Shown one piece after another: positions 2,753-47,589 of a DNA stretch of 64,000 nt; within the stretch, counting starts at the first letter, position 1; each line of letters opens with the position of its first letter. Under the pieces are notes generated by a model, which was not told the DNA's origin, searched no databases, and saw nothing but the letters and a program-made list of their open reading frames with translations. Source of the stretch: Escherichia coli. GTDB taxonomy: Bacteria > Pseudomonadota > Gammaproteobacteria > Enterobacterales > Enterobacteriaceae. The position numbers and the translations under genes are program-made. The stretch lies in the NCBI RefSeq assembly GCF_003334785.1, contig NZ_QOWV01000004.1; one strand, 5' to 3'.

Positions 2753-4687
2753 TTACTTGTCGCCTAACTGCTCTGACATGGTGTTACCCGGGTTCGGCGT
2801 ACGCGGTTCATCAACCGGACGAGGAGCCTTTGGACTACCATTGTCGCCAGAATTGTTAGAAGCGCCTGGTTCTTCCCAGCCCGCTGGCGGACGTACATCG
2901 CGACGTGCCATCAGGTCATCAATCTGCGGTGCGTCGATAGTCTCATATTTCATGAGAGCATCTTTCATCGCATGCAGAATATCCATATTGTCGGTCAGAA
3001 GCTGACGCGCACGATTATAGTTACGCTCAATCAGTGCTTTCACTTCCTGGTCGATGATACGTGCAGTTTCATCGGACATATGTTTCGCTTTCGCTACGCT
3101 ACGGCCGAGGAACACTTCACCTTCTTCTTCCGCGTACAGCAGTGGACCCAATTTCTCAGAGAAGCCCCACTGAGTCACCATGTTACGTGCCAGGTTGGTC
3201 GCAACTTTAATATCGTTGGACGCACCGGTAGATACATGTTCCGGCCCGTAGATGATCTCTTCTGCCAGACGACCACCGTACAGCGTAGAAATCTGGCTTT
3301 CCAGTTTCTGACGGCTGGCGCTGATTGCGTCGCCCTCAGGCAAGAAGAAAGTCACACCCAGCGCACGACCGCGTGGGATAATCGTCACTTTGTGCACCGG
3401 ATCGTGTTCCGGCACCAGGCGACCGATAATCGCATGACCCGCTTCGTGGTAAGCCGTCGATTCTTTCTGCGCTTCCGTCATCACCATGGAGCGACGTTCC
3501 GCACCCATCATGATTTTGTCTTTCGCTTTCTCGAACTCAACCATCGACACAACGCGTTTGTTGCCACGAGCAGCGAACAGTGCCGCTTCGTTCACCAGGT
3601 TCGCCAGGTCAGCACCGGAGAAACCAGGAGTACCACGGGCAATGATTGCCGCGTCGATATCGGGTGCCAATGGTACGCGACGCATGTGAACTTTCAGGAT
3701 CTGCTCACGACCGCGAACATCTGGCAAGCCGACCACAACCTGACGGTCGAAACGGCCAGGACGCAGCAGGGCCGGGTCGAGAACGTCCGGACGGTTAGTC
3801 GCGGCGATAACGATGATACCTTCGTTACCTTCGAAGCCATCCATCTCAACCAGCATCTGGTTCAGAGTCTGTTCACGTTCATCGTGACCACCGCCCAGAC
3901 CAGCGCCACGCTGGCGGCCTACGGCGTCGATTTCATCGATAAAGATGATGCACGGTGCCGCTTTCTTCGCCTGTTCGAACATGTCACGAACACGGGATGC
4001 ACCCACACCGACGAACATTTCTACGAAGTCAGAACCGGAGATAGTAAAGAACGGAACTTTCGCTTCGCCTGCAATCGCTTTCGCCAGCAGCGTTTTACCG
4101 GTACCCGGAGGACCGACCATCAAGACGCCTTTCGGGATCTTACCGCCGAGTTTCTGGAAGCGGCTCGGCTCGCGCAGATACTCAACCAGTTCAGCAACTT
4201 CTTCTTTTGCTTCGTCGCAGCCCGCAACGTCAGCAAAGGTCGTTTTGATCTGATCTTCCGTCAGCATGCGCGCTTTGCTCTTACCAAACGACATGGCACC
4301 TTTGCCACCGCCGCCCTGCATTTGACGCATGAAGAAGATCCAGACACCAATCAGCAACAGCATCGGGAACCAGGAGATGAAGATAGAAGCCAGCAGGCTT
4401 GGTTCTTCAGGCGGTTCACCGACAACCTTGACGTTCTTGGTCAACAGGTTATCCAGTAATTTCGGATCCTGAACCGGAATGTAAGTGGTATAACGGTTAC
4501 TATCTTTCTTGGTAACGTTGATTTCACGTCCGTTGATACGCGCTTCACGAACCTGGTCGTTATTGACCTCTTGTAGGAAGGTAGAGTAATCCACCTTACG
4601 GCCATTAGACTCGCTGGGCCCAAAGCTCTGGAATACTGACATCAGCACAACGGCAATGACCAGCCAGAGTATTAGGTTTTTCGCCAT
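2753..4687 (-). CDS. ftsH: ATP-dependent zinc metalloprotease FtsH
   Basis: 644 aa from ATG (MAKNLILW...); Walker [14 protein letters not shown] zinc site; track ORF extends 3 codons upstream to a TTG. Confidence 0.97.
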
Positions 4688-16217: not shown

Positions 16218-17817
<1,600 letters not shown>

Positions 17818-35400: not shown

Positions 35401-36937
35401 CTCTATCGAGGACTTAGCGCAGCTCATTTTCGACCTCAAGCAGGTTAACCCGAAAGCGATGATCTCCGTGAAGCTGGTTTCCGAACCGGGAGTAGGCACC
35501 ATCGCGACTGGCGTGGCAAAAGCTTATGCGGACTTGATCACCATCGCAGGCTATGACGGCGGCACCGGCGCAAGTCCGCTTTCATCGGTGAAATACGCAG
35601 GCTGTCCGTGGGAGCTGGGGCTTGTTGAAACCCAGCAGGCGCTGGTTGCTAACGGCTTGCGTCACAAGATCCGTTTGCAGGTCGATGGCGGCCTGAAAAC
35701 GGGTGTCGATATCATCAAGGCGGCGATTCTCGGCGCAGAAAGCTTCGGCTTCGGCACTGGCCCGATGGTGGCGCTCGGCTGTAAATATCTACGTATTTGC
35801 CATCTGAACAACTGCGCAACGGGTGTAGCAACTCAGGATGACAAACTGCGTAAGAACCACTATCACGGCCTGCCATTCAAGGTGACGAATTACTTTGAGT
35901 TTATCGCCCGTGAAACCCGCGAGCTGATGGCACAGCTTGGCGTAACACGTCTGGTGGATCTGATTGGTCGCACCGACCTGCTGAAAGAGCTGGACGGTTT
36001 CACCGCCAAACAGCAGAAGCTGGCGCTGTCGAAGCTGCTGGAGACTGCCGAACCGCATCCAGGTAAGGCACTCTACTGCACCGAAAACAACCCGCCGTTT
36101 GATAACGGCCTGCTGAACGCGCAGTTGCTGCAACAGGCGAAACCGTTTGTCGATGAGCGCCAGAGCAAAACCTTCTGGTTCGATATTCGCAACACCGACC
36201 GTTCTGTCGGCGCGTCGCTTTCAGGCTATATCGCCCAGACGCACGGCGATCAGGGGCTGGCAGCCGATCCTATCAAAGCGTACTTCAACGGCACCGCAGG
36301 CCAGAGCTTCGGCGTGTGGAACGCGGGCGGCGTGGAACTGTACCTGACCGGTGATGCCAACGACTATGTCGGTAAAGGCATGGCGGGCGGCTTAATCGCC
36401 ATTCGTCCTCCGGTTGGTTCCGCCTTCCGCAGCCATGAAGCAAGCATTATCGGCAACACCTGCCTGTATGGCGCGACCGGTGGTCGTCTGTATGCCGCAG
36501 GCCGCGCGGGTGAACGTTTCGGCGTGCGTAACTCCGGTGCTATCACCGTGGTAGAAGGCATTGGCGACAACGGTTGTGAATATATGACGGGTGGTATCGT
36601 CTGCATTCTGGGTAAAACCGGCGTTAACTTCGGTGCGGGCATGACCGGCGGTTTCGCTTACGTTCTCGATGAAAGCGGCGATTTCCGCAAACGCGTTAAC
36701 CCGGAACTGGTCGAGGTCTTAAGCGTTGACGCTCTGGCGATCCATGAAGAGCATCTGCGTGGTCTTATCACCGAGCATGTGCAGCATACCGGCTCTCAGC
36801 GCGGTGAAGAGATTCTGGCGAACTGGTCAACCTTCGCCACTAAATTTGCGCTGGTTAAACCGAAGTCCAGTGATGTAAAAGCACTGCTGGGTCACCGTAG
36901 TCGTAGCGCAGCTGAGTTGCGCGTGCAGGCGCAGTAA
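32477..36937 (+). CDS. gltB: Glutamate synthase (NADPH) large subunit
   Basis: 1486 aa from ATG ([26 protein letters not shown]...); track ORF extends 36 codons upstream to 32369. Confidence 0.96.
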
Positions 36938-38368
<1,431 letters not shown>

Positions 38369-38381
38369 GCGAGGTAACAAT

Positions 38382-38409
38382 GAATTCGCCAGACTGTGTC
38401 TGGCGAATC
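38382..38409. repeat. Palindromic unit (GAATTCGCCAGAC-TGT-GTCTGGCGAATC), 13 nt after the gltD stop
   Basis: 12-13 bp perfect inverted arms with 3-nt centre; same family as the units in and after yhcG. Confidence 0.8.
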
Positions 38410-38927
38410 AAATTACTGACGAAGTGCGCGTTGTTTTCTGGCAAATGCGGCATGAGCGTTTGACCTTTCCTATAATAGGGATAATTTTCAATAAATTGTG
38501 CTTTGTTCACCAAGTCTGATGAGTGAAGCACATCAAGCAATTTCTCATTTACAATCCGTCTCAATTACTTGTTAACACCTCTGACAATACCGATTCTGCA
38601 AGCTATTCAGTCTTTTCATTCCATGTAAATTGTCTCGATATTAATATACAAAATATGAATATAAAAAACCAATATATTATCCTTAATTATCTATATATTT
38701 TCCTATTTTTCAGCGCAAACATTCATGTAATGAATAATTATCACCACAAACCACCTCACCAGCACCTTATTATTCACATGATCGTAACTATAAAATTCAT
38801 TAAATAAATACATCCCAGCAAGTTGGCTATTTCTGAACGAGTTATTTATTTACATTCACAAACAGATATATATACTGCTTCAGCTTTTTATTTTAAAAAA
38901 TAAATTTGTTATTAAGGATATGTTCAT

Positions 38928-39692
38928 ATGTTTTTCAAAAAGAACCTCACAACAGCTGCTATTTGTGCAGCACTTTCTGTTGCAGCATTCAGTGCCATGG
39001 CAACAGATTCAACTGATACAGAATTAACTATCATCGGCGAGTATACCCCTGGTGCATGTACCCCAGTTGTTACGGGCGGCGGCATTGTTGACTATGGGAA
39101 ACATCATAACAGTGCGCTGAATCCGACCGGTAAAAGTAATAAACTGGTTCAACTGGGCCGCAAAAACAGCACATTAAATATAACCTGCACAGCACCAACG
39201 CTAATTGCTGTAACCTCCAAGGATAACCGTCAGTCGACCATTGTAGCGTTAAACGACACATCCTATATTGAAAAAGCTTATGATACTCTCGTAGATATGA
39301 AGGGAACGAAAAACGCCTTTGGTTTAGGTTCTGCGCCTAATGGACAAAAAATTGGCGCTGCATCCATTGGTATTGACAGGTCTAATGGTGGGATTCACGC
39401 GGCGGACGATACAGGTGAAATTCCTGTCGACCTGATTCAAACTGACCACTGGTCAGCAGCGACCCCCACATGGAAAGCCTCATCTAATGGCGCATTCTGC
39501 TCGCTGACAAGTTGCTCAGCAATCGAGCGCGGTTATTCTGTTGCAAAAACAGGGGAACTGACACCTGTTGCCATTACAGCGGTCACCTTCCCGTTACTGA
39601 TTGATGCTGCGGTAAATGACAATACTATTCTTGGTTCTGATGAAACGATCAAACTGGATGGTAACGTCACTATCAGCGTTCAGTATTTATAA
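38928..39692 (+). CDS. gltF: GltF, periplasmic fimbrial-subunit-like protein (DUF1120 family)
   Basis: 254 aa; signal peptide MFFKKNLTTAAICAALSVAAFSAMA; C-terminal ...KLDGNVTISVQYL shared with yhcF. Confidence 0.9.
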   Translation: MFFKKNLTTAAICAALSVAAFSAMATDSTDTELTIIGEYTPGACTPVVTGGGIVDYGKHHNSALNPTGKSNKLVQLGRKNSTLNITCTAPTLIAVTSKDNRQSTIVALNDTSYIEKAYDTLVDMKGTKNAFGLGSAPNGQKIGAASIGIDRSNGGIHAADDTGEIPVDLIQTDHWSAATPTWKASSNGAFCSLTSCSAIERGYSVAKTGELTPVAITAVTFPLLIDAAVNDNTILGSDETIKLDGNVTISVQYL

Positions 39693-39863
39693 GAACTTGT
39701 AATACAGTTTTTATTTTTACGCATTAACCAGTTAGCTATAACTCGGACAGATTATGCCCTATGACATGGTCTGTCTTAATCAATCTCATCGCAAACAGTG
39801 CATAACATATATTAACAATATGTTTCTGCGTTATTTATCATTATTACAGGAGTTTTAATTTAA

Positions 39864-40538
39864 ATGCTCAGACACATTACATTCACTGTATTTATAACAA
39901 CATCAATGAATACCTTAGCCACAGGGATGGTTCCTGAAACATCAGTATTGCTGGTTGATGAAAAGCGTGGTGAAGCTAGTATTAATATTAAGAATACAGA
40001 TGATCATCCTTCATTGCTTTACACCACCATTGTTGATTTGCCTGAAAGCAATAAATCAATTCGTTTAATCCCGACTCAGCCCGTTATTCGTGTTGAAGCC
40101 GGTCAAGTACAACAGGTTCGATTTTTACTTCAGGCGACTGTTCCTCTGCAATCAGAAGAGCTGAAACGCGTAACGTTCGAAGGTATTCCACCAAAAGATG
40201 ACAAGAGCAGCAGAGTTACTGTTTCAATTCGTCAGGATCTACCTGTACTGATCCACCCGGCTTCCCTGCCGGAAGAGCGAGAGACCTGGAAATTCCTGGA
40301 ATGGCGTAAAAATGGCGACCAAATTGAGATTAGCAACCCCAGTAATTATGTCGTTCGTATGACCTTACAATTTAAAACGCTCCCTTCAGGAAAAACGGGG
40401 GCTATAAATAAGACCTATTTTCTACCACACACCAGTACAACTACTGCATTAACAAACGCTACGGATACAAAAGTCGAGTTTTACCCAGCCAGCCGATATG
40501 GTTATCGCGGTAATAAATATGTCACTGACTTAAAATAA
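39864..40538 (+). CDS. yhcA: Fimbrial periplasmic chaperone (PapD-like)
   Basis: 224 aa; MLRHITFTVFITTSMNTLATGMVPETSVLLVDEKRGEASINIKNTDD... Confidence 0.9.
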   Translation: MLRHITFTVFITTSMNTLATGMVPETSVLLVDEKRGEASINIKNTDDHPSLLYTTIVDLPESNKSIRLIPTQPVIRVEAGQVQQVRFLLQATVPLQSEELKRVTFEGIPPKDDKSSRVTVSIRQDLPVLIHPASLPEERETWKFLEWRKNGDQIEISNPSNYVVRMTLQFKTLPSGKTGAINKTYFLPHTSTTTALTNATDTKVEFYPASRYGYRGNKYVTDLK

Positions 40539-40558
40539 CTTTGCCTGGAGCGACAAGG

Positions 40559-42940
40559 ATGTTAAAAAAAACGTTACTGGCCTACACCATTGGTTTTGCC
40601 TTTTCTCCCCCAGCCAATGCAGATGGTATAGAGATTGCCGCTGTTGATTTTGATCGGGAAACATTAAAATCACTAGGTGTAGATCCTAATATATCGCATT
40701 ATTTTTCCCGTTCAGCCCGTTTTTTGCCAGGTGAATATTCACTGATAGTATCAGTAAATGGCGAAAAAAAAGGCAACATTGCTACGCGCTTTGATGAAAA
40801 TGGCGACATTTGTCTTGATCAGGCATTTCTGCAACAAGCCGGTTTAAAAATTCCTTCTGAAGAAAAAAATGGCTGTTACGACTATATATTGTCCTACCCG
40901 GGTACCACAATCACACCATTACCTAACCAGGAAGCGTTAGATATTATCGTTTCACCACAGGCGATCATTCCCATAGGGTTGGATCTCACAAACGCAGCAA
41001 CTGGTGGAACAGCTGCGCTGCTAAACTACTCTCTGATGAGCAGCCGTGCAGAATTTTCTAATGGGAGTTCGGACTACTCCCAGGCTGCACTTGAAGGCGG
41101 GATTAATATTAATGACTGGATGTTACGCAGCCATCAGTTCCTTACACAAACAAATGGCACATTCAGTAACCAGAACTCGTCAACCTACCTTCAACGTACC
41201 TTTACAGATCTTAAAACACTCATGCGAGCAGGTGAAGTTAACCTCAATAATAGCGTGTTGGAAGGAGCCAGTATTTACGGTATCGAAATCGCACCGGACA
41301 ACGCATTGCAAACCAGCGGCAATGGTGTGCAAGTTACTGGTATAGCCAACACCTCTCAGGCTCGTGTCGAGATTCGTCAACAAGGAGTTTTAATTCATTC
41401 CATTCTGGTTCCTGCGGGCGCATTCACTATCCCTGATGTACCTGTTCGCAATGGTAATAGTGATCTTAATGTCACCGTTGTCGAAACAGACGGTAGTTCG
41501 CACAACTATATTGTTCCCTCCACCCTGTTTAATCAGCATGTAGAAAGCTTCCAGGGTTATCGCTTCGCGATAGGGCGGGTAGACGATGACTATGACGAAT
41601 CACCTTGGGTAATTAGTGCATCGAGCGGATGGAATCTGACACGCTGGAGTGCAATGAACGGCGGCGTTATCGTAGCAGAAAATTATCAGGCGGCATCAAT
41701 CCGGTCGAGTCTGGTTCCCCTGCCCGATTTAACAGTGAGCAGCCAAATTAGTACATCGCAGGATACGAAAGACTCACTGCAAGGACAGAAATATCGTCTT
41801 GACGCGAACTACAATCTCCCATTTTCACTTGGGCTAACAACCAGCCTCACTCGATCTGATCGCCATTATCGCGAACTGTCTGAAGCGATTGATGATGATT
41901 ATACCGATCCGACTAAAAGCACTTATGCGCTTGGTTTAAACTGGTCTAACTCCATTCTGGGTGGTTTCAACATCAGTGGCTATAAAACATATAGTTACGA
42001 CGGTGACAATGACTCAAGCAACCTTAATATTAACTGGAACAAAGCGTTCAAACACGCCACGGTTTCCGTCAACTGGCAGCATCAACTTAGTGCTTCAGAA
42101 AATAATGAAGACGATGGTGATCTGTTCTACGTCAACATCAGTATTCCATTTGGCAGATCAAACACCGCCACACTGTATACTCGCCATGACGATCATAAAA
42201 CCCACTATGGTACTGGTGTCATGGGAGTCGTCTCAGATGAGATGTCCTACTATGTGAATGCTGAACGAGATCACGACGAACGTGAAACGAGCTTGAACGG
42301 CAGTATCAGTTCCAATCTCCATTACACCCAAGTCAGCCTTGCCGCAGGAGCAAGCGGCAGTGATAGCCGTACTTACAACGGTACGATGTCAGGTGGTATT
42401 GCCGTACATGATCAGGGAGTGACCTTTTCACCGTGGACTATCAATGACACTTTCGCCATCGCAAAAATGGATAACAATATTGCAGGTGTCAGAATTACAT
42501 CTCAGGCAGGCCCAGTATGGACAGATTTTCGGGGTAATGCCGTCATTCCATCAATCCAGCCGTGGCGAACATCAGGAGTTGAGATCGATACCGCCAGCTT
42601 GCCAAAAAATGTCGATATCGGTAACGGCACAAAAATGATCAAACAAGGCCGTGGTGCAGTAGGGAAAGTCGGATTCAGTGCGATAACACAACGCCGTGCA
42701 TTACTCAATATCACACTTTCCGACGGCAAAAAACTGCCCAGAGGCGTTGCGATTGAAGATAGTGAAGGCAACTATCTGACAACATCAGTGGATGACGGTG
42801 TTGTATTCCTCAATAACATCAAACCGGACATGGTGCTAGATATAAAAGATGAGCAGCAATCATGCCGTATTCACCTTACATTCCCAGAAGATGCACCAAA
42901 AGATGTGTTCTATGAGACAGCAACAGGAGAGTGCCAATGA
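40559..42940 (+). CDS. yhcD: Fimbrial outer membrane usher
   Basis: 793 aa from ATG (MLKKTLLAYTIGFAFSPPANA...); C-terminal Cys pair. Confidence 0.9.
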   Translation: MLKKTLLAYTIGFAFSPPANADGIEIAAVDFDRETLKSLGVDPNISHYFSRSARFLPGEYSLIVSVNGEKKGNIATRFDENGDICLDQAFLQQAGLKIPSEEKNGCYDYILSYPGTTITPLPNQEALDIIVSPQAIIPIGLDLTNAATGGTAALLNYSLMSSRAEFSNGSSDYSQAALEGGININDWMLRSHQFLTQTNGTFSNQNSSTYLQRTFTDLKTLMRAGEVNLNNSVLEGASIYGIEIAPDNALQTSGNGVQVTGIANTSQARVEIRQQGVLIHSILVPAGAFTIPDVPVRNGNSDLNVTVVETDGSSHNYIVPSTLFNQHVESFQGYRFAIGRVDDDYDESPWVISASSGWNLTRWSAMNGGVIVAENYQAASIRSSLVPLPDLTVSSQISTSQDTKDSLQGQKYRLDANYNLPFSLGLTTSLTRSDRHYRELSEAIDDDYTDPTKSTYALGLNWSNSILGGFNISGYKTYSYDGDNDSSNLNINWNKAFKHATVSVNWQHQLSASENNEDDGDLFYVNISIPFGRSNTATLYTRHDDHKTHYGTGVMGVVSDEMSYYVNAERDHDERETSLNGSISSNLHYTQVSLAAGASGSDSRTYNGTMSGGIAVHDQGVTFSPWTINDTFAIAKMDNNIAGVRITSQAGPVWTDFRGNAVIPSIQPWRTSGVEIDTASLPKNVDIGNGTKMIKQGRGAVGKVGFSAITQRRALLNITLSDGKKLPRGVAIEDSEGNYLTTSVDDGVVFLNNIKPDMVLDIKDEQQSCRIHLTFPEDAPKDVFYETATGECQ

Positions 42941-43482
42941 AACGGATAATAACAGGATGCCTGCTGCTGAACTTCGCCATGGCCGCTCAGGCAGAGTGTA
43001 ATATCTCCAGTAGCATACAAAATATCGACTATGGCAAACGAAGTGCTGCCATGCGCCAAGTTGACCGGGGTAAAACAACACAATTAGCAGACAGAACAAT
43101 CACGCTGGTAATGCAATGCGATCAGGACGCTCATATTCGTGTTCAGTTGAATACCGCTAATATTTCCAACAACGGATTTGGATTTGGCCCGAATGGTTCA
43201 TTAAATCTGATCGCCAGCGATGCATTTTCAGGTAGTAACAATCTCGACCTGGCGTTAGCCAGTGGCAAAAATGACAATCCGGGCAGCACAGGAACAGCAT
43301 CAATTAGTACTTCCCCCAATAATTGGCTGGTGTTTATGCAAAATGGTCAAGAAGTGGTAATTGATAGCGGTAAAAGCGTTAGCCTCACACTGACAATGGC
43401 TCCAGCTTTTAAGGATGAAGGGGAACTAACCGACATGACAGATATTACAGGCAATCTGACGGTCCTGGTGGAGGCAAAATGA
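42937..43482 (+). CDS. yhcE: Putative fimbrial subunit YhcE (DUF1120-like), apparently intact
   Basis: 181 aa from ATG overlapping the yhcD stop (ATGA); signal peptide MKRIITGCLLLNFAMAAQA; no insertion sequence in or near the ORF. Confidence 0.8.
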   Translation: MKRIITGCLLLNFAMAAQAECNISSSIQNIDYGKRSAAMRQVDRGKTTQLADRTITLVMQCDQDAHIRVQLNTANISNNGFGFGPNGSLNLIASDAFSGSNNLDLALASGKNDNPGSTGTASISTSPNNWLVFMQNGQEVVIDSGKSVSLTLTMAPAFKDEGELTDMTDITGNLTVLVEAK

Positions 43483-44195
43483 ACAATGTAAAATTACTGA
43501 TTGCCGGAAGTGCCTTTTTTGCCATGTCAGCGCAAGCCGCTGATAGAGTATCAATTGACGTTAAGGTGACTCTGGAAGCTGCAGCTTGTACTCCAATACT
43601 AAGCAACGGCGGAGTTGTTAACTTCGGTAGTCATTCAGTCAATAGACTTTCAACGCAGCACTACACACAGATTGGAACACGTAATATTAATATGACTATA
43701 ACTTGCGAATCCGCTACCGGCATTGCGATTACCGCTCGTGATACACGAATGGATAGTATGACCACCGGAAAAGATAGTGGGGGTCAGAGTGGTGTAAAAT
43801 ATACCTTAAATGGCGGAGGTTATATTAGCCAGACAACGCGCTTATTCGGCTTAGGGAAAACAAAAGATAATAAAAATATCGGTAGTTATGCCGTGTTAAT
43901 TGATAGCAACAACATTAGTGCCAGCAATGGTAGCCAGACGTTAGCTGTATCAATAGCAGGTGCAGATGCCGTCATAACAGGGCAAAAAAGAGCATGGCAA
44001 ACGCTCACCGCTTATCCGCTTGCAGTCGATCAAAGCTATTATTACACCTTTGTAAAACCAGGTGAAACAACCCCAACTCCTGTAACGAACGCCATTATAC
44101 CGCTTCAGGTGAGCGCATCTATCGCGAATGATTTAGGCGGTTCAGAAAAAATCGAACTTGATGGGAAAGCTGTGATAAGCGTAGTCTACTTGTGA
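43479..44195 (+). CDS. yhcF: Putative fimbrial subunit YhcF (DUF1120 family)
   Basis: 238 aa; signal peptide MNNVKLLIAGSAFFAMSAQA; C-terminal ...ELDGKAVISVVYL paralogous to gltF. Confidence 0.85.
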   Translation: MNNVKLLIAGSAFFAMSAQAADRVSIDVKVTLEAAACTPILSNGGVVNFGSHSVNRLSTQHYTQIGTRNINMTITCESATGIAITARDTRMDSMTTGKDSGGQSGVKYTLNGGGYISQTTRLFGLGKTKDNKNIGSYAVLIDSNNISASNGSQTLAVSIAGADAVITGQKRAWQTLTAYPLAVDQSYYYTFVKPGETTPTPVTNAIIPLQVSASIANDLGGSEKIELDGKAVISVVYL

Positions 44196-44379
44196 TAACA
44201 ATGCCGGACAGGAGTACTATCAGGCATTCGTTTTATACGATCGGTTAATGTTTCAGGAAAGCTCTTCGCATATCTTGGGGAAAGTAAATGTAATACGCTG
44301 TTCTTAATTGTTCAGTGCTCACCCCCCAGAGTATAGCTCATTCCATTATTCAACTTAGCTCCATATAAAGGGACAGATA

Positions 44380-45507
44380 ATGGAATCGCTCTCAGAAGGA
44401 ACCACAGCAGGCTACCAGCAAATCCACGACGGTATTATTCATCTGGTCGATAGCGCCCGGACGGAAACGGTACGTAGCGTTAACGCGTTAATGACCGCGA
44501 CGTACCAGGAAATTGGCCGACGAATTGTCGAATTTGAACAAGGTGGCGAGGCCAGGGCTGCGTATGGTGCGCAGCTAATCAAGCGACTATCAAAGGATTT
44601 ATGTCTAAGGTATAAGCGTGGGTTCTCTGCAAAAAACTTACGCCAAATGAGGCTTTTTTACCTCTTTTTTCAACATGTTGAAATTCGCCAGACAATGTCT
44701 GGCGAATTAACACCATTGGGAATTCCGCAGACACCGTCTGCAGAATTCCCATCGGCAAAGATTTGGCAGACGCTGTCTGCCAAATCTTTCCCCTTGCCCA
44801 GGTCCACCTACGTCCGTTTACTTTCCGTTAAAAACGCTGACGCCCGCAGCTTTTATGAAAAAGAGACGCTCCGCTGTGGCTGGTCTGTTCGCCAGCTAGA
44901 GCGGCAAATTGCGACCCAGTTTTATGAGCGGACACTACTGTCACATGACAAATCAGCCATGCTGCAACAACACGCTCCTGCCGAGACGCATATTCTTCCG
45001 CAACAGGCGATACGCGATCCCTTTGTGCTCGAATTTCTGGAATTGAAAGATGAATATTCAGAATCCGATTTTGAGGAGGCGCTGATCAACCACCTGATGG
45101 ATTTCATGCTGGAACTTGGGGATGATTTTGCCTTTGTTGGTCGGCAGCGAAGGTTACGCATTGATGACAACTGGTTTCGTGTCGATCTGCTGTTTTTCCA
45201 CCGCCGTTTACGCTGCCTGCTAATCGTCGATCTAAAAGTGGGCAAATTCAGCTATAGCGATGCCGGACAGATGAATATGTATCTCAACTACGCCAAAGAG
45301 CACTGGACGCTACCGGATGAAAATCCGCCCATCGGTCTGGTTCTCTGTGCAGAGAAAGGAGCCGGAGAAGCGCATTATGCTCTGGCAGGTTTGCCTAACA
45401 CCGTTCTGGCAAGCGAATATAAGATGCAACTACCTGATGAGAAACGACTCGCAGATGAACTCGTTCGAACACAGGCGGTGCTAGAGGAAGGCTATAGACG
45501 CCGTTAA
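44380..45507 (+). CDS. yhcG: YhcG, DUF1016-family protein with PD-(D/E)xK nuclease-like C-terminal region
   Basis: 375 aa; MESLSEGTTAGYQQIHDGIIHLVDSARTE...; C-terminal ...RVDLLFFHRRLRCLLIVDLKVGKF... resembles a D...(D/E)xK core; contains three in-frame palindromic repeat units. Confidence 0.85.
   Translation: MESLSEGTTAGYQQIHDGIIHLVDSARTETVRSVNALMTATYQEIGRRIVEFEQGGEARAAYGAQLIKRLSKDLCLRYKRGFSAKNLRQMRLFYLFFQHVEIRQTMSGELTPLGIPQTPSAEFPSAKIWQTLSAKSFPLPRSTYVRLLSVKNADARSFYEKETLRCGWSVRQLERQIATQFYERTLLSHDKSAMLQQHAPAETHILPQQAIRDPFVLEFLELKDEYSESDFEEALINHLMDFMLELGDDFAFVGRQRRLRIDDNWFRVDLLFFHRRLRCLLIVDLKVGKFSYSDAGQMNMYLNYAKEHWTLPDENPPIGLVLCAEKGAGEAHYALAGLPNTVLASEYKMQLPDEKRLADELVRTQAVLEEGYRRR
44682..44787. 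repeat. Three tandem 27-29 bp palindromic units (CAGAC-N3-GTCTG core) inside the yhcG coding sequence
   Basis: Units at 44682-44708, 44720-44748 and 44759-44787 with 38-39 bp periodicity; 12-13 bp inverted arms, two perfect and one with a single mismatch. Confidence 0.8.
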
Positions 45508-45520
45508 TTTCAGCGGTTTC

Positions 45521-45548
45521 GAATTCTGCAGACAGTGTCTGCAGAATC
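45521..45548. repeat. Palindromic unit (GAATTCTGCAGAC-AGT-GTCTGCAGAATC), 13 nt after the yhcG stop
   Basis: Perfect inverted arms; same family as 38382-38409 and the intragenic yhcG units; lies between convergent yhcG and yhcH. Confidence 0.8.
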
Positions 45549-45566
45549 TTTAAAACGAACTAAGTT

Positions 45567-46899
<1,333 letters not shown>

Positions 46900-46903
<4 letters not shown>

Positions 46904-47589
46904 AGCACCGCCTTTTTCATCGCTGTGTTGTACCACTGACAAATGTGCTCAAGACGCGTGATTGCAGAACCGACCGTCACCGCCCACGCGCCGTGGCGCA
47001 TCGCATCCGCCGCCTGAGCAGGCGTGTTGTAACGCCCTTCGGCAATCACCCGACATCCGGCGTCGCTCAACGTTTTCACCAGCGCCAGATCCGGCTCTTC
47101 TGGCGTTTCAGGCGTGGTATAGCCAGAAAGCGTAGTGCCAATAATTTCGGCTCCCAGCTTTTGGCATGCCAGGCCGTCTTCCGGCGTTGAGCAGTCGGTC
47201 ATCGCCAGTAAACCGTGATGGTGAATACGTGCCAGCAGCGTTTCAACAGGCACCGGACGCGGGCGGTCGGTGCCGTCAATGGCGATAATGTCCGCGCCCG
47301 CCTGCGCCAGCGCATCAACATCTTCAATATAGGCCGTGATGCGTACCGGAGAATCCTCCAGATCGCGTTTCACAATTCCAATAATCGGCACGCTCACCAC
47401 CGCACGCGTGGCTTGCAGATTTGCCACACCTTCAATGCGAATGGCAACCGCGCCCGCCTGTTCTGCCGCTAATGCCATGGCGGCGACGATTTCGGGTTTA
47501 TCGAGCGGGCTGTCCGGAACCGGCTGGCAGGAGACAATCAGGCCACCGTTAGCAGCGATTTTTTGATCCAGTTGTGCAAGTAACGACAT
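46900..47589 (-). CDS. nanE: N-acetylmannosamine-6-phosphate 2-epimerase
   Basis: 229 aa from ATG ([30 protein letters not shown]...). Confidence 0.95.

Follow-up and report, generated by a model that had tools for sequence, protein, structure and literature searches.

A 28-nt palindrome just downstream of gltD in Escherichia coli, at positions 38382–38409 of a 64,000-nt stretch of contig NZ_QOWV01000004.1 (assembly GCF_003334785.1; hereafter the window, which comprises the arcB-yhcC-gltBD-gltF-yhcADEF-yhcG-nanQ region), is interpreted here, with fair confidence, as an orphan copy of a palindromic unit belonging to yhcG, a DUF1016-type nuclease gene, which bounds a strain-variable segment and has been co-opted as the 3′ stem-loop of the gltBD mRNA. 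Thirteen bases (GCGAGGTAACAAT) separate the gltD stop codon from this proximal unit, whose 11-nt arms (38384–38394 and 38398–38408) are 100% complementary across a 3-nt spacer; folding allows a 12th pair with a 1-nt bulge, at −22.6 kcal/mol for RNA (z −5.6) and −12.1 kcal/mol for DNA (z −6.1). The unit of yhcG/DUF1016 genes is a palindrome of 27–29 bp with the consensus AATT-N8-A[C/G]T-N8-AATT, and the proximal unit shares its arm length (11–13 bp), 3-nt spacing and complementarity. Its left end is AATT and its right end AAT-C, which lacks one T, as does that of the distal copy located after yhcG; its centre in the window is C-TGT-G, against the consensus C-A-S-T-G (S = C/G). The single copy found in genomes of the Nissle type (see below) has AATT…AATT ends and a C-AGT-G centre.

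The link to yhcG is one of both sequence and position. The gene lies 6 kb downstream of the proximal unit, within one variable segment, and contains three units (U1, U2, and U3; Table 1) with 39-nt spacing, all in its reading frame; its stop codon is followed by 13 bases (TTTCAGCGGTTTC) and then by the distal unit, GAATTCTGCAGAC-AGT-GTCTGCAGAATC. The proximal unit is 92% identical over 26 nt to U1 and 82% identical to the distal unit. The initial annotation was correct in placing a palindrome 13 nt past the gltD stop codon, in calling its arms nearly identical to those of the first yhcG unit, and in giving the copies after gltD and yhcG the same distance from their stop codons. A search with the pattern GAATTCNNCAGACNNNGTCTGNNGAATC, allowing up to three mismatches, recovered four units in the window (as eight strand-matches) and none in 100 shuffles; U3 is the fifth. 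Likeness among the five ends at the unit edges and their flanks are unrelated; the two 13-nt spacers agree at only 1 of 13 positions. Remnants of a second yhcG were sought around the gltD copy and none was found apart from the unit itself. Tandem Repeats Finder detected nothing in yhcG because the 39-bp units are too diverged. At 38437–38446, 28 nt past the proximal unit, TCTGGCAAAT resembles a right half-arm and shows 90% complementarity with the left arm of that unit, either by chance or perhaps as what is left of a half unit.

The initial annotation had proposed RNA 3′-end mapping downstream of gltD as a check, and a published map provides it: Term-seq of MG1655 places the primary gltD 3′ end at NC_000913.3 3360660 (Adams et al., 2021; PMC7815308, Supplementary file 1), where the gltD stop codon ends at 3360616, the hairpin spans 3360630–3360657 and the RNA thus ends 3 nt past the stem. 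The tail after the stem, AAAUUACUG, contains no T run and hence lacks the U tract of an intrinsic terminator, and a terminator scan of 38300–38950 and 45400–45700 returned no terminator-like site. Rho-dependent transcripts have been found to end at steady state just past stable stem-loops without a U tract, which shield the RNA from polynucleotide phosphorylase (PNPase) and RNase II (Dar and Sorek, 2018; PMC6061677). With its stable fold, absent U tract and RNA end at +3 nt, the proximal unit fits this class of 3′ protective stem-loops. The Rho-region table of Adams et al. (PMC7815308) has no entry at the proximal unit, the nearest one lying inside gltF. A shared 3′-end function had been suggested for the gltD and yhcG copies; the mapped end supports a 3′-end function for the former, and for the latter no 3′ end is listed on either strand (Adams et al., 2021). 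Upstream of yhcG, a very strong Term-seq 3′ end (~67,600 reads) at NC_000913.3 3367641 on the minus strand belongs to the small RNA (sRNA) G0-10703, which runs antisense to yhcF and in the direction opposite to yhcG, away from it; its overlap with the yhcG 5′ untranslated region (UTR) is reported in a separate paper.

The units coincide with breakpoints of the gltD–nanQ interval. Among 5426 complete E. coli genomes, the K-12-type order gltD-unit-[gltF yhcA yhcD yhcE yhcF yhcG]-unit-nanQ occurs in 1223, the Nissle-type order gltD-TAA-13 nt-one unit-nanQ in 947, and the O157-type order gltD-183 nt-yhcG-unit-nanQ, in which gltD is followed by a different spacer and then by yhcG with no such hairpin between them, in 3140. 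The junction of Nissle 1917 joins the K-12 left flank to the right flank of the distal copy, the 7139-bp interval being gone. The outgroup E. albertii, which likewise has no unit after gltD, shows the O157-type left junction and has lost most of yhcG in a deletion whose product is a hybrid unit composed of an internal unit's left arm and the distal unit's right arm. Some O157 genomes are short by exactly 78 nt in frame, equal to two internal units, and others retain all three; in ~717 E. coli genomes, yhcG is cut exactly at the end of U3 and is followed by an unrelated, single-copy segment of 439 bp. Crossover points vary, falling at the unit centre in E. albertii and at the unit edge in Nissle and HKUOPY1, and short-homology or breakage events at repeated palindromes therefore fit better than the action of one precise recombinase. 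From the outgroup and the majority state we infer the order O157-type to K-12-type, by gain of the fimbrial genes and of the unit beside gltD, and then to Nissle-type, by loss between units.

A census of the motif in the same genomes bears on the proposal, made when the palindrome was first noticed, that units are inserted at a set distance of 13 nt past stop codons. With a 30-nt query, each of these E. coli genomes yields 1–4 copies of the motif (median 2) and, among the matches listed, every copy is at the gltD–nanQ locus or in a yhcG-type gene; 3140 of the 5426 genomes have no copy after gltD, the spacers are unrelated, and in other taxa 3-nt-loop palindromes, some of them clearly family units, lie 18–43 nt past the stop codons of yhcG-type genes. 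These data do not support targeted insertion at this distance; the two extragenic copies have a common origin in the yhcG palindrome and obey no rule of placement after stop codons.

Beyond E. coli, the palindrome is a signature of DUF1016/YhcG genes. A scan of one genome per species for the exact pattern ATTYNNCAGACNNNGTCTGNNRAAT identified at least 120 loci from many bacterial phyla and from archaea, against a calculated chance expectation of ~17 for the whole collection. Among the 138 matches listed, 97 are in YhcG-like open reading frames (ORFs), 90 of these 97 in one frame, and 107 have both unconstrained NN positions in Watson-Crick complementarity, compared with ~6% by chance and with many pair types represented. 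To guard against ascertainment bias, 80 homologues were also collected from viral contigs by C-terminal peptide patterns only; nearly all have the palindrome at ~0.3 of gene length and in the same codon phase. Their stems diverge widely, as in AATTGCGAACGC-GCT-GCGTTCGCAATT, CAATTGTCGTATC-ACT-GATACGACAATTG, CAATTTGCTACAC-ACT-GTGTAGCAAATTG and ATTTTCCAGTC-AGT-GACTGGAAAAT, which encode IANALRSQF, IVVSLIRQL, ICYTLCSKL and IFQSVTGKL, respectively, and arm pairs such as GCGAACGC/GCGTTCGC, GTCGTATC/GATACGAC and TGCTACAC/GTGTAGCA differ in sequence at the same gene position. When the arms are located by a constant distance to the codons for LSWSHY, 29 of 51 unique genes form at least 9 of the 12 possible Watson-Crick pairs, vs. 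0.2% of 15,438 same-phase control windows; in the same alignment, 80.5% of cells are paired, compared with 54.6% after shuffling and 31–37% with the partners slid, and double-change cells number 135 against 46 expected, with none of 500 shuffles reaching the observed values. Judged from this covariation, selection is on the nucleic acid and not on the peptide.

A single base pair of U1 illustrates the process within Escherichia. At 44686–44703 (16585–16602 in locus L001 and 3417–3441 in locus L043), the pair exists in three states: G-C in CGC..GGC (window and O157), an A.C mismatch in CAC..GGC (K-12 BW25113) and A-T in CAC..GGT (E. albertii). One arm underwent a non-synonymous and the other a synonymous change, and the three alleles read together are a compensatory path.

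Whether the selected molecule is DNA or RNA can be approached through its mismatches and its centre. In the sense orientation, G.T and A.C mismatches number 35 and 26 in the unbiased set and 27 and 27 in the other set; ACT and AGT centres are equally frequent; and the first and third spacer bases are symmetric (A..T). Because an RNA hairpin tolerates G.U and not A.C, the comparable rarity of the two mismatches and the equal frequency of the centres point to selection on a strand-symmetric DNA form, cruciform or duplex, rather than on RNA. A plain homodimer operator was considered as the sole explanation and rejected, given that positions that vary among the five units of one genome stay self-complementary, which favours a structure that requires intrastrand pairing.

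Copies outside the gene recur in other lineages. In three lineages of the unbiased sample, a second copy of the lineage's own palindrome lies ~345 nt upstream; the copy in L195 is located between a TTGAAT-17-TATAAT promoter and the ribosome-binding site, and the copy in L163 is in a frame that differs from that of the internal copy. Several further upstream copies occur in the first, pattern-selected set. Solo intergenic units are present at ~20 loci, with hsdR, a SIR2-like gene, mnmE, and dnaA among their neighbours. A Cytophagales contig (L081, 1–1500) has three tandem repeats of ~680 bp, each with a unit and short yhcG N-terminal coding fragments.

Table 1. Coordinates of the palindromic units and associated features in the window
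Feature	Position	Strand	Remarks
gltD (glutamate synthase small subunit)	36950..38368	+	stop TAA 38366-38368
Proximal palindromic unit, GAATTCGCCAGAC-TGT-GTCTGGCGAATC	38382..38409	.	left boundary of the variable segment; fits stem-loop at the gltBD mRNA 3′ end
Strain-variable segment (gltF, yhcA, yhcD, yhcE, yhcF, yhcG, distal unit), 7139 bp	38410..45548	+	missing in Nissle-type
Position equivalent to the Term-seq gltD 3′ end	38412..38412	+	window 100% identical to K-12 BW25113 here
yhcG: DUF1016_N + YhcG_C PD-(D/E)XK nuclease, matches PADLOC PDC-S02	44380..45507	+	stop TAA 45505-45507
Internal unit U1 (AAATTCGCCAGACAATGTCTGGCGAATT)	44681..44708	.	in frame, encodes IRQTMSGEL
Internal unit U2 (GAATTCCGCAGACACCGTCTGCAGAATT)	44720..44747	.	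in frame, one stem mismatch, 39 nt after U1
Internal unit U3 (GATTTGGCAGACGCTGTCTGCCAAATC)	44760..44786	.	immediately 5′ of the LSWSHY codons
Distal unit (GAATTCTGCAGACAGTGTCTGCAGAATC)	45521..45548	.	13 nt after the yhcG stop, 18 nt after the convergent nanQ stop; right boundary of the variable segment
nanQ (yhcH)	45567..46031	-	convergent; adjoins the single unit in Nissle-type genomes

Among the alternatives, the view of the palindrome as part of a dispersed family resembling repetitive extragenic palindromic (REP) sequences, inserting at a set distance past stop codons, is the one implied by the initial annotation, and it takes its strength from the two copies at stop+13 and from discrete modules with unrelated flanks, which imply some route of unit copying. 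The restriction of the 1–4 copies per E. coli genome, among the matches listed, to this locus or to yhcG-type genes, the 3140 genomes without a unit after gltD and the differing stop-codon distances in other taxa already contradict it for E. coli; furthermore, the annotated MG1655 sequence around the gltD copy (NC_000913.3 3360500–3360800) has no repeat feature, unlike REP elements and the bacterial interspersed mosaic elements (BIMEs) that they compose. The unit presumably does not match the REP consensus either, and we consider this view highly improbable. A covariance search against Rfam gave no relevant match at E values up to 10 in window 36000–47000 and in L195 2800–3400, and integron attC sites do not fit, there being no GTTRRRY/RYYYAAC cores in the proximal unit and no integrase annotated at the locus. 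A different mobile reading would make the units attachment sites and the 7.1-kb gltF–yhcG segment an integrative element inserted into a single chromosomal unit through site-specific recombination, which YhcG might catalyse or trigger, with excision restoring the empty site of the Nissle type. The units do flank the segment exactly, the empty form keeps one of them, and yhcG is at the element's end beside a unit, as integrase genes are beside attP; elsewhere, an intact yhcG-like gene without an internal palindrome lies between identical 48-bp direct repeats that contain the unit (L090), and an unrelated 280-aa ORF lies between two units beside hsdR (L067). However, the yhcG-unit-nanQ junction is also present in O157-type genomes and E. 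albertii, both without the proximal unit, and so did not arise through integration; the crossovers of separate events fall at different points, a recombinase gene is lacking, and rejoining DNA is beyond a PD-(D/E)XK nuclease alone. Both the integrative element and the role it would give to YhcG are thus unlikely.

The other two alternatives concern what is selected. On an RNA reading, the family element would serve the yhcG mRNA as a hairpin that regulates in cis or protects, placed in the 5′ UTR, internally or at the 3′ end, and the gltD copy would be one more instance; this copy indeed defines an RNA 3′ end, some homologues have a copy 10–22 nt before the start codon or a few tens of nt past the stop codon, and the RNA folds are very stable. 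Such a role fits poorly with G.U being no commoner than A.C in the sense orientation, with the equal use of both centre orientations, with an A..T symmetry of the first and third loop bases that a 3-nt RNA loop does not need, with the many solo copies in intergenic DNA and with the lack of an Rfam family match, and we hold it to be an outside possibility for the family. Quasi-palindromes in E. coli are known to undergo correction by template switching, an established source of mutation, and the palindrome could be a functionless, self-perpetuating product of such correction or a by-product of a selected repeated peptide (IxQTxSxE), as suggested by units that are in frame and by Q, T, and S residues that are invariant in the first, pattern-selected sample. 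In the unbiased sample, however, the peptide varies freely (IANALRSQF, IVVSLIRQL, ICYTLCSKL, DGSTLWNQL) while complementarity is kept; extragenic copies occur in other frames or in non-coding DNA, the peptide is in a predicted disordered loop, and in the absence of selection it would be difficult to account for a palindrome kept at the same site in both bacteria and archaea. The by-product explanation can hardly be credited.

The explanation that we prefer, and consider probable as a whole, combines an orphan yhcG unit, deletion-prone repeats, co-option as RNA and a DNA site of YhcG itself. The ancestral E. coli arrangement was most likely gltD-yhcG-unit-nanQ; the K-12 type would have arisen when the fimbrial genes gltF-yhcADEF were acquired along with a unit beside the gltD stop codon. 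The units would then act as short direct repeats or fragile palindromes at which deletions arise, such as the proximal-to-distal loss of the Nissle type, the hybrid unit of E. albertii and the 78-bp in-frame loss of O157. In K-12-type strains, the proximal copy would have been put to use in RNA, the steady-state gltBD mRNA ending at a stem-loop without a U tract; the 3′ end itself is mapped, and it would reflect protection from 3′ exonucleases after Rho-dependent termination further downstream. The palindrome would serve the YhcG nuclease as its cognate DNA site, in cruciform or duplex form, and would be kept in and beside the gene for autoregulation and/or cleavage; of the proposals consistent with the sequence patterns, a DNA site for the nuclease is the most likely function of the family element, and it is also the least certain part of the explanation. 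A broader scheme is offered more tentatively, and we regard it as possible rather than probable: DUF1016/YhcG and the in-gene palindromes might form a hitherto unrecognised nuclease-palindrome partnership, akin to that of REP sequences with their associated transposases but based on a PD-(D/E)XK enzyme, in which YhcG recognises the cruciform or hairpin of its own gene, rarely copies or relocates units of 27–29 bp, and makes breaks that reshuffle defence-island loci, the gltD hairpin being a relocated unit that later became an mRNA end.

Several observations weigh against the preferred explanation. The gltD 3′ end comes from a single Term-seq dataset, in which it appears in one of three growth-condition tabs, and a stronger end (1859 vs. 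956 reads) lies 123 nt downstream of the hairpin, at NC_000913.3 3360783 (window ~38535), so the palindrome is partly read through. The order from O157-type to K-12-type to Nissle-type is drawn from a single outgroup by parsimony. In the Nissle unit, the arms are matched (GC/GC), and a simple unit-centre crossover between the present K-12 copies would not yield such a pair; either the crossover fell at the unit's right edge or later correction restored the palindrome. The equal 13-nt spacing may be a coincidence or a constraint of ribosome clearance. The cognate-site idea is drawn from co-occurrence, and in K-12-type YhcG an Arg replaces an invariant Trp (see below), making present-day interplay of protein and site in this strain doubtful. 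The 3360783 end is located at another small stem-loop, in the gltD-gltF spacer.

YhcG consists of a DUF1016_N domain (residues 19–184) and a YhcG_C PD-(D/E)XK domain (residues 208–360), and it matches the PADLOC candidate defence gene PDC-S02 (E 3e-131). Foldseek relates its nuclease domain to NucS/EndoMS, as a generic PD-(D/E)XK fold; no sequence relative was found in PDB and no model in NCBIfam. The residues encoded by the units are in a loop with a predicted local distance difference test score (pLDDT) <50 at 103–120, and such a low-confidence, presumably disordered loop would explain the tolerance of a DNA element in frame. At window 44800–44802, the invariant Trp of the family's LSWSHY motif is replaced by Arg (AGG) in yhcG of the window and of K-12, whereas the O157 allele has TGG; K-12-type YhcG may be inactive. 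In many genes of the family, a split or truncation falls at the palindrome, and PADLOC includes many short models that match only the first ~100–115 YhcG residues; the many fragments catalogued in databases as “DUF1016 N-terminal domain” may be products of breakage at the palindrome.

Other features of the interval differ among strains. In O157-type genomes and E. albertii, gltD ends with another hairpin, CAGCGCCG-17 nt-CGGCGCTG, which is GC-rich (L003 12081–12113; L043 2941–2973); between lineages, one structure at the 3′ end of gltD has thus replaced another. The 439-bp segment of the ~717 genomes (L004 12667–13105) takes the place of the distal unit and of the last two-thirds of yhcG, and one end of it carries a degenerate unit-like TTTGGC..TCTGTGCCAAA. 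It was considered as an insertion sequence and rejected, being single-copy and having a 101-aa “transposase” ORF that matches no NCBIfam, PADLOC, or PHROG family. A yhcG allele that starts at position 385 was likewise dismissed as a case of hairpin recombination: in strain L73 (L206 488–1200), the start at position 385 coincides exactly with an IS1 insertion within U3, and the gene lacks its 5′ part, so that the allele is uninformative; IS1 may lie there by chance or because it favours the unit. yhcE (42931–43482) is intact in the window and carries IS5 in K-12 BW25113, so the window is K-12-like and is not K-12; strain 300709 is 100% identical to the window in all segments compared.

For E. 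coli K-12, this interpretation accounts for the hairpin that ends a well-studied operon and supplies the structure behind the mapped gltBD 3′ end, and it accounts for the differences in the gltD–nanQ interval among K-12, O157, and Nissle-type strains. More generally, covariation seen from bacteria and archaea to viral contigs reveals that the genes of a very widespread, uncharacterised nuclease family, listed as a candidate antiphage gene, conceal a nucleic-acid element within their reading frame; the family's own palindrome gives a concrete handle on the function of DUF1016 proteins, and codon-optimised or otherwise recoded yhcG constructs would destroy it. No earlier description of a palindromic element in DUF1016/yhcG was found in the searchable literature (DUF1016, YhcG, PDC-S02, gltF/gltD stem-loop) or in Rfam.

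The closest parallel is the combination of REP/BIME sequences with REP-associated tyrosine transposases (RAYT, TnpA-REP), or “REPtron,” in which short palindromic units are tied to one nuclease-type gene and flank it, occur as discrete modules with copies between convergent genes just past stop codons, and in some cases stabilise mRNA from its 3′ end. There the partner is an HUH/Y1 transposase and here a PD-(D/E)XK nuclease (DUF1016); in addition, the main copy of the yhcG unit is in the gene and in frame, copies number 1–4 per genome rather than hundreds, and the sequences are unrelated. The proximal unit has the stable stem-loop and the RNA end at +3 nt of 3′ stem-loops without a U tract (Dar and Sorek, 2018), and differs from typical members in being a borrowed copy of a DNA palindrome rather than an invention of its locus, most E. 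coli strains ending gltD with a different hairpin. Integron attC sites are also imperfect palindromes conserved by structure, located at ORF 3′ ends and bounding cassettes; the yhcG unit has no R″/L″/L′/R′ cores, extrahelical bases or integrase, and its arms are near-perfect and symmetric without strand bias. Rickettsia palindromic elements (RPEs) are in-frame, translated palindromes of 100–150 bp that are found in many unrelated genes and are restricted to one lineage. The yhcG unit resembles them in being translated palindromic DNA in a surface or loop region with variable copy number, and departs from them in its length of 27–29 bp, its confinement to one gene family and its conservation across phyla at one position. 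Cis sites within the gene of their user include lacO2 in lacZ, galOI in galE, the pT181 origin hairpin in repC and the phiX174 origin in gene A. As in these, the palindrome or hairpin overlaps coding DNA, and some yhcG lineages have a promoter copy ~345 bp away; unlike in-gene operators, the inner stem of the yhcG unit varies even between copies in a single genome, a pattern in favour of structure, rather than an operator sequence, being recognised at the putative site of YhcG.
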